Of a stretch of 64,000 nucleotides of DNA, positions 2,513 through 4,969 are shown one piece after another. The stretch lies in assembly GCA_963770895.1 (NCBI GenBank), contig CAVYRF010000001.1:1120001-1184000 (forward strand), in the 5' to 3' direction. A program made the position numbers and the translations under genes. How positions within the stretch are numbered: the first letter of the stretch is position 1; each line of letters opens with the position of its first letter. This DNA comes from an uncultured Acidobacteriota bacterium. Its GTDB lineage: Bacteria > Acidobacteriota > Thermoanaerobaculia > Multivoradales > UBA5704. Under the pieces are notes generated by a model. It saw only the letters and a list, made by a program, of their open reading frames with translations. It did not search any database and had not been told where the DNA came from.

Positions 2513-2950
2513 ATGGAAGGCAAGGTGGAAGGCACCGGCACCGACCCAGACCCAGGCGCGGCGGCGGAAACGCCGGCAGCGGCGGCGATCGATTGGGAGA
2601 TGCGGCCCCGGCGTGCCGCGGGCATCGAGCTGAGCGAGGTGACCGACGGCTTCCTGGTCTACCAGCCGCAGCGCGACCGCGTGCACTACCTCAATCCGAC
2701 GGCGGCGCTGGTCCTCGAAGCGTGCGACGGCTCCATCCGGGCGGGCGATCTGCCGGTCTTCCTGGCCGGCGCCTTCCAACTGGCCGTGCCGCCGTACGAC
2801 GAGGTGGCGGGCTGCCTGGCGAAGCTCCTGGCGGAAGGGTTGCTGGTGGCGGCGGCGGACGGCGGCGATGGCGGCCTGGACGATCGGGAGGGTCGGGAGG
2901 GTCGGGACGGTCGGAGCGGTGGCGAGGGTGGCGGCGCGCCGCCGCTGTGA
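2513..2950 (+). CDS. PqqD-family peptide chaperone (RiPP recognition element)
   Basis: IELSEVTDGFLVY..RVHYLNPTAALVLEACDG..CLAKLLAEGLL matches the PqqD pattern. Low-complexity tail with 9-bp repeats (ggtcgggag) near 2882-2917. Confidence 0.8.
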   Translation: MEGKVEGTGTDPDPGAAAETPAAAAIDWEMRPRRAAGIELSEVTDGFLVYQPQRDRVHYLNPTAALVLEACDGSIRAGDLPVFLAGAFQLAVPPYDEVAGCLAKLLAEGLLVAAADGGDGGLDDREGREGRDGRSGGEGGGAPPL

Positions 2951-3054
2951 TAACCTAATGGTGACCGTAGTTTAGGTTGCGTAGCTGCTTCAGGGACACG
3001 TATACGGACTGATTCTCGATCGATTCTCGATCGACCTTCAACGGGGGTGAACGC

Positions 3055-3534
3055 GTGGCACCGGAAGAGTCACAGCGACTGTTGGATCGTCTGGGTTCCG
3101 ATCGTCGGCAGTTCCTGCAGAAAATCCTGCTGACCGCCTATGCCGCGCCGTTCGTGGCGTCCTTCGGCATGAAGGGCCTGGGGCTGGGCGAAGCGATGGC
3201 GCAGTCCAACCTCTGCTCCAACGTGACGGTGCCCAATACCTCGGCCGACCTGGTCATCACCAAGAGCGCCTCACCCAGTCCGGCGGTGCCGGGCGCCAAC
3301 CTTACCTACAGCATCTTCGTCGTCAATTGCGGGCCGGCCGTCGCCACCAACGTCAGCGTCTCCGACCCCATCCCGACCGGTACCACGTTCGTGTCGGCCA
3401 GCCAGACCAGCGGCCCGACCTTCACCCTGGGCACGCCGCCGGTGGGGGGCACCGGCACGTTCATGGCGACCATCCCCACCCTGAGCGCGAACGCCACGGC
3501 CAGCTTCCAGCTGGTCGTCTTCGTGACCCCCTGA
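3055..3534 (+). CDS. Tat/RiPP-like leader + short N/S/C-rich core + C-terminally incomplete DUF11 Ig-like domain
   Basis: RBS gggggtga before GTG. Twin-arginine motif SDRRQFLQK and AxA cleavage site AMA|Q. DUF11 motifs ADLVITKS, PGANLTYSIFVVNCGP, ATNVSVSDPIPTGTTFVSAS. The protein stops at FQLVVFVTP, before the usual ITNTATV strand. Confidence 0.85.
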   Translation: MAPEESQRLLDRLGSDRRQFLQKILLTAYAAPFVASFGMKGLGLGEAMAQSNLCSNVTVPNTSADLVITKSASPSPAVPGANLTYSIFVVNCGPAVATNVSVSDPIPTGTTFVSASQTSGPTFTLGTPPVGGTGTFMATIPTLSANATASFQLVVFVTP

Positions 3535-3550
3535 CGGAAAGAAGATCGCC

Positions 3551-3817
3551 ATGGGCCTGAAAATGCGCATGCTTGCCGCCCTGCTTCTCCTGCTGCCGGC
3601 GGCCGCCGTTGCCGCGGTGCCGCAGATCACCAACACCGTCACGGTCACCGCCACCAACGCCTTCACCGCCAACGGCGACGGCACCATGACCCTGGTGACG
3701 CCGGTGCTGATGGCGGCGCCGACGCTGTCGACGGCCGGCCTGGTGACCCTGGCCCTGGCGCTGGCGGTGTTCGCGGTCGCCCGCATGCGGCAGCGTCAGC
3801 TGCAGTCGCGCGCCTAG
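3551..3817 (+). CDS. Small secreted protein: signal peptide + DUF11-like terminal strands + IPTL-CTERM-like sorting signal
   Basis: Purine-rich RBS ggaaagaag. Sec signal MGLKMRMLAALLLLLPAAAVA, then QITNTVTVTAT, then APTLSTAG + hydrophobic helix + basic tail RMRQR. Confidence 0.8.
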   Translation: MGLKMRMLAALLLLLPAAAVAAVPQITNTVTVTATNAFTANGDGTMTLVTPVLMAAPTLSTAGLVTLALALAVFAVARMRQRQLQSRA

Positions 3818-3826
3818 CGCGGCACG

Positions 3827-4969
3827 GTGCCAAACCAGCAAGACGGAGGCGGCGTCCTGCTTTCGGCCGCCCTCATCGTCCGCAACGAAGAACGGTTTCT
3901 GGCCGGCTGCCTGCAATCCATCGCCGGGCTGGTCGACGAGGTCGTGGTGGTCGACACCGGCTCGACCGACCGCAGCCGCGAGATCGCCCGCGGCCATGGC
4001 GCCCGGCTGGCGGAGCTCCCCTGGCGCGGCGACTTTGCCGCCGCGCGCAACCACGCGCTCGACCTGGCGCGCGGCGCCTGGATCCTTTACATCGACGCCG
4101 ACGAACGGGTGAGCGCGGGCGGGCGGGCGGAGCTTGAACCGCTGCTGCGCGATCCGCACCTGGCCGCGTGCACCGTGCGCTTCCGGCCGGTCACCGGCTT
4201 CACCCGCTACCGCGAATATCGCCTGTTCCGCAACCGCCCCGACCTGCGCTTTGCCGGCGTCATTCACGAGACTCACGTCCCGGCGCTGATCGACGTGTGC
4301 GCCCGCGAAGGGCTGGCCATCGCCGACAGCGCGGTGGCGATCGATCACCTCGGCTACGACGGCGACCTGGCCCACAAGCATCGCCGCAACCTGCCGCTGC
4401 TGCGCGAGCGGCTGGCGAGCGACCCCAACCACGTCTACAGCTGGTGCCACCTGGGCGTCACCCTGCACGGCATGGGCGACCAGGAGGGGGCGGAGCAGGC
4501 GTGGCGCCAGGGAGTCCAGGTGGTGCGCCAAAAGCAGGCGCGAACGATCGCCGACAGCGGCCCCTACGTCGACCTGACCCACACCTTGATGCGCCGCGGC
4601 CAGCCGGTGACGGAACTGCTGGACGAAGCGCTCTTTTTCTTCCCCGACAACTTCACCTTGCAATGGCTGCGCGCCCGCGCCCTGATCGAGGAGGGGCAGT
4701 TTGCCGCGGCGCTGCCGATCGTGGAGCGGCTGGCGGCGACCGATCCCGAAGTGGAGCTGGGCGGCGTCCTGGCCCACGACGAGCGGATCTTCGGCCTGTT
4801 CGCCTACGAGGCCCTGGGTCTGTGCTGCTTCCGGCTCGGACGTTACGCGGAGAGCGCGCGCTGGTACGGCCGCGCCGCGGAGGTCGCGCCGGCGCCGCTC
4901 GAAAACCGCACCAAGATGCAGCTGGCCGCGACCCTTGCCAATGCCACCAGCGGCGCCGGCGCGCCGTGA
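3827..4969 (+). CDS. GT2 glycosyltransferase with TPR repeats (SunS-like architecture)
   Basis: LSAALIVRNEE, VVDTGSTD, DFAAARNHAL, WILYIDADE, FAGVIHE, IDHLGY, followed by TPR-like helices. Confidence 0.9.
   Translation: MPNQQDGGGVLLSAALIVRNEERFLAGCLQSIAGLVDEVVVVDTGSTDRSREIARGHGARLAELPWRGDFAAARNHALDLARGAWILYIDADERVSAGGRAELEPLLRDPHLAACTVRFRPVTGFTRYREYRLFRNRPDLRFAGVIHETHVPALIDVCAREGLAIADSAVAIDHLGYDGDLAHKHRRNLPLLRERLASDPNHVYSWCHLGVTLHGMGDQEGAEQAWRQGVQVVRQKQARTIADSGPYVDLTHTLMRRGQPVTELLDEALFFFPDNFTLQWLRARALIEEGQFAAALPIVERLAATDPEVELGGVLAHDERIFGLFAYEALGLCCFRLGRYAESARWYGRAAEVAPAPLENRTKMQLAATLANATSGAGAP

Follow-up and report, generated by a model that had tools for sequence, protein, structure and literature searches.

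The window analysed here is a stretch of 64,000 nucleotides (nt) from an uncultured soil bacterium of the Acidobacteriota (class Thermoanaerobaculia, order Multivoradales; GenBank assembly GCA_963770895.1, contig CAVYRF010000001.1, positions 1,120,001 to 1,184,000 of the forward strand). Near its start lie two short adjacent genes, named ORF1 and ORF2 after their open reading frames (ORFs), which appear to encode complementary pieces of one and the same domain of the DUF11 family, also known as CLIPPER. ORF1 carries the greater part of the domain behind what looks, by its motif, like a signal for twin-arginine translocation (Tat), and ORF2, which begins 16 nt past the stop codon of ORF1 and in another frame, combines a Sec-type signal peptide of its own with a very short mature segment and an IPTL-CTERM sorting tail (Table 1). 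The preliminary description of this locus had pointed to a second gene with its own ribosome-binding site (RBS) and signal, and both reading frames, the RBS-like GGAAAGAAG stretch and the Sec-type signal can indeed be read in the sequence, as can the codons of the three residues that it had put forward as partners in an isopeptide bond (Lys70 and Asp104 of ORF1 and Asn28 of ORF2, hereafter K70, D104 and N28).

Table 1. The gene pair, its parts and the adjoining genes, in positions of the window (aa, amino acids; TM, transmembrane; GT2, family 2 glycosyltransferase; TPR, tetratricopeptide repeat)
Feature	Position	Strand	Description
ORF1	3055..3534	+	159 aa, GTG start, ends FQLVVFVTP-TGA; CLIPPER/DUF11 domain without the last two strands ('catcher' part)
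Tat-type signal of ORF1, residues 1-49	3055..3201	+	SDRRQFLQK, h-region ILLTAYAAPFVASF, Lys-bearing c-region, predicted cleavage between AMA and Q
Codon of K70 (ORF1)	3262-3264	+	read in sequence
Codon of D104 (ORF1)	3364-3366	+	read in sequence
RBS-like GGAAAGAAG	3536..3544	+	within the 16-nt ORF1-ORF2 spacer; read in sequence
ORF2	3551..3817	+	88 aa: signal peptide, two putative donor beta-strands, IPTL-CTERM sorting tail ('tag plus anchor' part)
Sec-type signal of ORF2, residues 1-21	3551..3613	+	K/R n-region, Leu-rich h-region, cleavage between AVA and A; read in sequence
Mature donor segment of ORF2, residues 22-56	3614..3718	+	AVPQITNTVTVTATNAFTANGDGTMTLVTPVLMAA; strand ITNTVTV; N28 codon at 3632-3634
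IPTL-CTERM sorting domain, ORF2 residues 57-80	3719..3790	+	APTLS motif, TM helix, Arg cluster
GT2 glycosyltransferase with C-terminal TPR repeats	3827..4969	+	9 nt 3′ of ORF2; PF00535 73.7 bits, plus TPR families
PqqD-like small protein	2513..2950	+	5′ of ORF1; PF05402 E 0.002, 18.8 bits, below the cut-off of 23.4

By the gathering score of Pfam, ORF1 is a member of the DUF11 family that covers the profile only in part. Specifically, its residues 65-157 match positions 1-84 of the 114 positions of PF01345 (63.3 bits against a cut-off of 24.6) and TIGR01451 agrees with Pfam (58.9 bits), which bears out the earlier claim that the protein is the first part of a DUF11 domain and stops at FQLVVFVTP. 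A complete domain on one chain would comprise seven to nine strands, including the strand that bears the bond-forming Asn and the last strand, and ORF1 falls short of this. In the source genome, 3 of the 41 DUF11 matches end at profile position 84 or 85, and all three belong to the ORF1 family (one in the window and two paralogous copies at C2:2.218 Mb). The same boundary is found with a local DUF11 profile (121/122 positions) built from 14 intact domains of the source genome, on which all members of the ORF1 family start at position 2 and none extends beyond position 89 of 121; in profile-profile comparison the family occupies positions 2-87 of 122 (E 8e-19). The family itself was collected by a length-restricted protein search that yielded 54 clusters, the carriers of the twin-arginine (RR) region being 120-177 aa long, and the alignment made from these clusters and six locus-derived copies contains 53 members with RR. 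The C-terminus is reached in 49 of the 53, all of which end no more than three residues from a shared ...VVxV(T/N)P, and the remaining four are fragments of 120-154 aa.

The second gene is shorter and less easily recognised. Across six homologues its signal layout is identical, cleavage is predicted 4-8 residues ahead of a TNT motif, and five positions (T27, N28, T29, T31 and V32) are invariant. The IPTL-CTERM-like anchor that the preliminary description had noticed scores above the cut-off in both libraries (PF18203, 24.3 bits against 20.8; TIGR04174, 24.2 bits against 20.5), and 5/6 homologues show a match to this domain at E<=10. A protein search with ORF2 returned nothing at E<=0.01, its own sequence included. 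By exact look-up, two of the six homologues are present in the protein collection as called genes (unnamed or 'hypothetical'), and the window ORF2, with the start chosen here, is absent from it. Two long antisense ORFs on the minus strand (3461-4777, 438 aa, and 3271-3786, 171 aa) overlap ORF1, ORF2 and the glycosyltransferase gene that follows them. Such ORFs are typical of high-GC DNA, and they may explain why the window ORF2 is missing from the protein collection.

The relation of ORF2 to the domain emerges from its family. More specifically, the mature part of the six homologues aligns in profile-profile comparison with positions 90-122 of the 122 positions of the local DUF11 profile (score 23.2, P 5.5e-4), a score that was reached by none of 80 composition-keeping column shuffles (mean 7.9, maximum 14.4). 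When the paralogous row from the source genome, which is the most DUF11-like, is left out, the score is 19.0 and none of 60 shuffles reaches it. This paralogous ORF2 (from locus L021, described below) keeps the DPxxxNN motif of the domain and on its own matches positions 65-114 of 114 in Pfam DUF11 (20.4 bits, E 7e-4, below the cut-off), and the local hidden Markov model (HMM) follows it through position 121 with 20.6 bits. On these alignments the ORF1 and ORF2 families share out the DUF11 profile between them from one end to the other.

The division into two genes is conserved. Downstream DNA is available for six loci from five genomes (the window, L021, L042, L043, L044 and L045, the last being the same as L023), with ORF1 identities of 45-70%, and a seventh locus (L046), the only one obtained from a scan of metagenomes, is cut inside ORF1, has no downstream DNA and stands outside this count. 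At 6/6 loci the gene next after the ORF1 homologue is of the ORF2 type (a signal, xITNTxTV and IPTL-CTERM), and the same split, which the preliminary description had proposed to look for in other genomes, is present in all five genomes, that of the window included. The spacers between the two genes measure 16, 14, 14, 9, 2 and -1 nt and mostly contain GGGAG or GGAAAG, an arrangement from which translational coupling of the two genes seems likely. Because the frame offsets vary between loci, the split is not one inherited frameshift. The paralogous locus of the source genome, L021 (G000:C2:2215000-2222000, minus strand 4411-3043), has the order DUF11 copy a, an ORF2-type gene with a 1-nt overlap onto the stop of that copy, DUF11 copy b, and a paralogue of the glycosyltransferase gene with TPR repeats (GT2+TPR); two shortened DUF11 genes thus flank a single ORF2-type gene, giving two possible 'catchers' for one 'tag'. 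The pair is also accompanied by the glycosyltransferase in G029 (locus L023=L045), from another family of the same order, and in three records of metagenome-assembled genomes from Acidobacteriota/Thermoanaerobaculia (L042-L044). Altogether, the ORF1 family is known in five genomes of Acidobacteriota, class Thermoanaerobaculia, and in about 50 metagenomic clusters. No full-length ORF1 match was found in nine genomes of the same genus (84-94% complete) and no family member at E<=1e-22 in 400 other sampled genomes of the phylum. In the genomes searched the family is accordingly uncommon and unevenly spread, which should not be read as absence.

Neither a faulty assembly nor a chance mutation accounts for the split. 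A public contig covering 2950-3562 shows zero differences from the window, and a contig from a different study covering 3426-3576 shows one substitution (3542 A>G) and zero indels; the junction is not an assembly error, because these contigs, including that of the other study, agree without an indel. The contig cover comes from four runs, and the part of ORF2 at about 3590-3685 is uncovered. A fused form, with an RR signal, a full domain and an IPTL tail, was not found among the matches of 87-279 aa or those of 280-2000 aa, the matches of 204-237 aa being pieces of ordinary repeat proteins without an RR region. In a full-library phmmer search with ORF1, the best 150 matches were giant multi-repeat DUF11 proteins only, and that search is therefore uninformative on fused single-domain forms. 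Uniformly fused homologues and a split that is an isolated artefact, which the preliminary description had named as refuting its proposal, are not what was found. Fused genes of a larger kind do exist in the source genome, where in several giant proteins DUF11 repeats are followed immediately by IPTL-CTERM in one frame (e.g. frames of 1555, 1556, 1992 and 1868 aa), and at least 12 IPTL-CTERM tails score above the cut-off there, several of them on DUF11 repeat proteins. This fused layout is likely to be the ancestral form, and the pair resembles a version of it with a single domain, cut inside that last domain and given a new signal on the distal piece. Two other small IPTL-CTERM matches in the genome were considered as members of split pairs and rejected, one (C2:2159399-2159938, minus strand) as a Cys-rich secreted small protein with an IPTL-CTERM tail (VPTLSLWGL...) and the other (C2:2104281-2104346) as noise.

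At the level of structure, the mature ORF1 is modelled alone by AlphaFold 2 (AF2) as a seven-strand sandwich (predicted local distance difference test, pLDDT, 87.6; predicted template modelling score, pTM, 0.75) of the CnaA-like immunoglobulin (Ig) type. The best small-domain match of this model is 9IFR, a solved CLIPPER domain (Foldseek TMq 0.70, root-mean-square deviation (rmsd) 2.5 Å), and VIA-align superposes model residues 12-110 on it with Z 9.9 and an rmsd of 1.9 Å over 92 aligned residues of a 123-residue chain. Domains of mu-adaptin and integrin give similar Z values with rmsd of 2.2-3.9 Å (3.5-3.9 Å for the two that outrank 9IFR), the fold class being common, and 9IFR is singled out because a low rmsd and a family match come together in it. 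The alignment runs out at the C-terminus of ORF1, beyond which about 30 residues of 9IFR have no counterpart; these would correspond to the Asn strand and the last strand in the register of the profile alignment. This register comes from the profile and not from a residue-level structural alignment, and the numbering of the 9IFR entry is offset. A HMMER pairing of the last 20 residues of ORF1, which sets its last strand against the Asn strand of 9IFR, is unreliable and conflicts with the coverage found with Pfam and hhalign. With ORF1 alone, phmmer missed 9IFR among the PDB sequences, and the family profile recovered it.

The two mature chains were also modelled as a complex, as had been suggested, from ORF1 residues 50-159 with an alignment of 29 rows and ORF2 residues 22-56 with an alignment of six rows. 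The interface score ipSAE was 0.65, 0.76 and 0.70 (median 0.70), against 0.02 for the best of three controls; in calibration that mark was attained by 58/80 solved complexes and 2/110 mismatched pairs, counts that are only roughly valid here because alignments of our own were supplied. The runs share at least 95% of their contacts, with a pLDDT of 71-80 for the partner. In the model, ORF2 residues 26-38 contact ORF1 residues 97-105 (the D104 strand) and 62-72 (the K70 strand), and ORF2 residues 43-53 contact ORF1 residues 75-89 and 157-159, and the first donor strand is accordingly placed as a central strand between A and C. Residues 66 and 68 of ORF1 touch residues 32 and 30 of ORF2, respectively, a register that extrapolates to K70 opposite N28, and D104 touches ORF2 residues 30-31. 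The model is consistent with a single CLIPPER-like domain made up of both chains; what it describes is contacts, and neither binding nor bond geometry.

The preliminary description had ascribed to DUF11 a Lys/Asp/Asn pattern of the isopeptide type, and this is correct: a crystal structure published in 2025 showed that an autocatalytic isopeptide of Lys, Asp and Asn stabilises the domain (PDB 9IFR; PMC12617251). According to that publication, some DUF11 domains are without the bond residues. In the profile alignment K70 and D104 of ORF1 fall on the Lys and Asp of 9IFR. The third residue, an Asn on the penultimate strand, is not on the same chain; the candidate is N28 of ORF2, invariant in 6/6 homologues, and the window copy holds the whole triad, divided between two genes.

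The signals at the two N-termini seem to be of different kinds. The RR of the ORF1 family, on which the preliminary description was silent, is invariant in 29/29 aligned rows and in 53/53 members, and TatC is encoded in the source genome (202.8 bits). Tat signals combine an S/T-R-R-x-F-L-K motif with a moderately hydrophobic h-region, a basic c-region and an AxA cleavage site, and ORF1 reads SDRRQFLQK at the place of the motif. Among the matches listed for ORF1 at E<=10 there was none to the TAT_signal HMM, and the assignment to the twin-arginine type is, for that reason, made at the level of the motif. Given this invariant signal, the export route of ORF1 would differ from that of ORF2. Residues 1-49 of ORF1 show a degree of conservation that is unusual in signal peptides, with AYAAPFVASF nearly invariant, and they might serve as a recognition element as well. 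Two Cys residues in the mature part are also conserved (C54 in 48/53 members and C92 in 53/53).

On this evidence it is rather probable that ORF1 and ORF2 form the two chains of one CLIPPER (DUF11) Ig-like domain which is split inside its fold and made whole by strand complementation, an isopeptide between the chains being plausible. That the genes encode complementary parts of a single domain, as the preliminary description had proposed, is supported by the conservation of the split, by the profile tiling and by the complex model with its controls. The pair might then work as follows. ORF1 would be exported via Tat, carrying strands A to F and with them K70, the Lys of the isopeptide, and D104, the Asp that catalyses it, and ORF2 would be exported via Sec and retained in the membrane by its IPTL-CTERM tail. 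Cleavage of the signal would expose a new N-terminus of ORF2 with the two missing strands (ITN28TVTV... and ...TMTLVTPV), and outside the cytoplasm these strands would insert into ORF1, the first of them between A and C, as in donor-strand complementation. Insertion would complete the sandwich and tie the soluble ORF1 domain, possibly for display at the surface, to a sorting signal that ORF1 does not have. In copies that keep the Lys, including that of the window, K70 and N28 would probably go on to form a spontaneous isopeptide with D104 as the catalyst, making the link covalent, and in the quarter of the family without this Lys it would be non-covalent. In its strongest form, the proposal describes a natural Catcher/Tag system in which a Tat-exported CLIPPER 'catcher' (K70, D104) forms an autocatalytic Lys-Asn isopeptide with a Sec-exported 'tag' that bears N28 and, apart from it, nothing but an IPTL-CTERM sorting signal. 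The cargo of one export route would thus be welded, once exported, to the anchor of another, and the product may be decorated by the adjacent glycosyltransferases. This stronger form is put forward tentatively, with somewhat less than even expectation.

A number of observations speak against the split-domain reading or against its covalent step. The window ORF2 alone has no Pfam DUF11 match at E<=10, and as a single row in hhalign it aligns with profile positions 17-39 (score 13.8) and not with the C-terminus of the profile; DPxxxNN has been lost from it, and its strand rich in T, V and N is similar to strand B as well. Because the window row aligns elsewhere, the assignment of ORF2 to the missing strands rests on the family and not on the window peptide, and with the four closest ORF2 rows only, the score of 16.9 was reached by 1 of 60 shuffles. 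What had been claimed for ORF2 thus stands for the profile of six homologues and not for the window copy taken alone, which cannot be assigned, and the proposed run of the PF01345 HMM on each ORF succeeded for the first and not for the second. AF2 folds ORF1 confidently on its own, and that model therefore gives no need for a partner; equally, such a fold says nothing on stability without one. The complex alignments are small, and a pass of this kind is typical for halves of a known fold and may mirror likeness among Ig-like domains and not affinity. The Tat and Sec signals of the pair were read by eye. Tat normally exports folded proteins, a difficulty for an ORF1 that is without a central strand. 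As to the bond, the Lys column of the 53 members reads K 40, S 8, A 3, N 1 and V 1, the Lys being missing in 13/53, and the conservation of the Asn is no evidence for a bond, because the Asn is kept irrespective of the Lys.

The last two points lead to the possibility that complementation is non-covalent in every member, the K/D/N residues being leftovers of an ancestral intramolecular bond, which is considered unlikely but by no means negligible. The 13 members without Lys would be expected under it, their ORF2 partners keeping TNT. The copies at L042-L044 are without the Lys (in L043 the mature domain, read by eye, is free of Lys altogether) and their ORF2 still reads (I/V)TNTATV, and the copy at L021 directly 5′ of ORF2 is without both Lys and Asp (ADVAVGVAAS, FDQKVP), the downstream copy having both; bond residues are likewise missing from some DUF11 domains according to the CLIPPER survey (PMC12617251). 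Against it, the Lys is kept in 40/53 members and the Asp in 51/53, the modelled register would set K70 opposite N28 with D104 adjacent, and split isopeptide domains are known to religate (PMC5487036). What the comparison does indicate is that the K-N bond is not the conserved purpose of the split, because 13/53 members are without the Lys and the ORF2 of L042-L044 keeps TNT all the same. As judged from the alignments, the conserved feature is the split with its complementation and not the covalent lock, which is at most an option for about three quarters of the members and a plausible one for the window copy.

Two further explanations would deny the pair a shared domain. It is improbable, if conceivable, that the genes are independent neighbours, with ORF1 a complete, compact, seven-stranded Tat-secreted domain and ORF2 an unrelated IPTL-CTERM peptide whose ITNTVTV likeness is compositional, both perhaps being glycosyltransferase substrates. 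This would agree with the AF2 model of ORF1 alone (pLDDT 87.6), with the missing DUF11 match and ambiguous alignment of the window ORF2, with the constant adjacency of the GT2+TPR gene and with the seven strands of the related compact CLIPPER_2 domains (PMC12617251). It does not agree with an ORF2 family profile that is specific to the last 33 positions and scores above all 80 shuffles, with a paralogous ORF2 that keeps DPxxxNN and extends to the last Pfam position, with an ORF1 match that ends at position 84 of 114, exactly where ORF2 begins, with mature N-termini lying 4-8 residues ahead of TNT in six loci, or with the gap between 0.70 for the complex and 0.02 for its controls. That a DUF11-IPTL-CTERM gene was simply broken by mutation and is decaying, ORF2 being non-functional, hardly deserves credence and is close to refuted by conservation, even if the fused layout is common in the source genome and the window ORF2, with the start chosen, is absent from the protein collection. 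Although their ORF1 identities are only 45-70%, 6/6 loci keep the split, their ORFs being intact, with own signals and RBS-like spacers; the frame offsets vary, one genome has two paralogous loci, 2/6 ORF2 sequences are called as genes in public sets, and independent contigs confirm the junction. The preliminary description, too, had argued that this is no simple broken gene, and the family members that reach the C-terminus all end at the same strand.

Among known systems, the probable split domain comes near to the CLIPPER domains themselves. The likeness to 9IFR lies in a family score above the cut-off, a CnaA-like Ig fold and a Lys and Asp at the aligned positions of ORF1; the known CLIPPER domains are, however, single-chain, usually arranged as tandem repeats in giant adhesins, with an intramolecular bond (PMC12617251). 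In the pair, by contrast, a separate protein with a signal peptide of its own bears both the Asn strand and the last strand, and a quarter of the family is without the Lys. Splitting isopeptide domains into Tag and Catcher is a widely used trick of protein engineering. SpyTag/SpyCatcher and their relatives are man-made, derive mostly from CnaB-type domains and use a Glu catalyst. In these engineered systems a strand-lacking domain and a peptide with a reactive residue reconstitute and ligate spontaneously (PMC5487036); the pair is natural, CnaA-like with an Asp, and would donate two strands, its ligation being a candidate only. The third parallel is donor-strand complementation in pili, especially in the archaeal thread filaments, where an N-terminal strand set free by signal cleavage completes the Ig-like fold and the filament is reinforced by glycans and by an intermolecular isopeptide to Asn (PMC9715654). 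The pair resembles them, by analogy, in the donor strand at the mature N-terminus and the adjacent glycosyltransferase genes. The bond partner in the threads is, however, the alpha-amine of Asp24 and not a Lys side chain (PMC9715654), and both threads and chaperone-usher pili are head-to-tail polymers of one kind of subunit, whereas a 1:1 heterodimer of domain and anchor would be expected of the pair. In IPTL-CTERM proteins, finally, the tail usually ends a large passenger, whereas the same-chain passenger of ORF2 measures about 35 residues and the real one would be encoded separately.

A literature search found no published natural isopeptide domain that is split across two genes; the supplementary per-domain predictions of the CLIPPER survey might bear on this, and the word 'split' is absent from the survey (PMC12617251). 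If the pair assembles, it would represent a new way of attaching a passenger to a C-terminal sorting signal, via a separate anchor peptide; it would also open an approach to IPTL-CTERM sorting, which is poorly understood, and make one ask by what means Tat exports a substrate whose fold is incomplete. Should the chains ligate as well, they would be a natural CnaA-type Tag/Catcher pair with Asp catalysis, for which the relatives without Lys would serve as built-in controls.

Among the surrounding genes, the most constant is that for the GT2+TPR protein, which adjoins the pair in all six loci (with paralogues or orthologues in L021, L023/L045 and L042-L044) and thereby suggests glycosylation of one chain or the other, for which C54 and C92 of ORF1, the N-x-S/T sites and the Thr-rich ORF2 would be candidate sites. 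Its best NCBIfam match is the SunS-family peptide S-glycosyltransferase (TIGR04195), with 60.5 bits against a cut-off of 350, and it does not qualify as an equivalog of that family. On the other side of the pair, the PqqD-like protein has a tail rich in Gly, Arg, Glu and Asp, and homologous ORFs lie 5′ of the pair in L042-L044. In L021 and L023 an ORF that by eye resembles an FkbM-like methyltransferase lies divergently upstream. The 105-nt gap between the PqqD-like gene and ORF1 contains a tandem direct repeat (gattctcgatc gattctcgatc; 3005-3035, plus strand) some 20-50 nt 5′ of the ORF1 start. Further upstream, an ORF of 258 aa at 1603-2379 on the minus strand matches Anp1 (PF03452) with E 5e-42. 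The Anp1 mannosyltransferase family is known mainly from fungi, and such a match is unusual in a bacterial genome.

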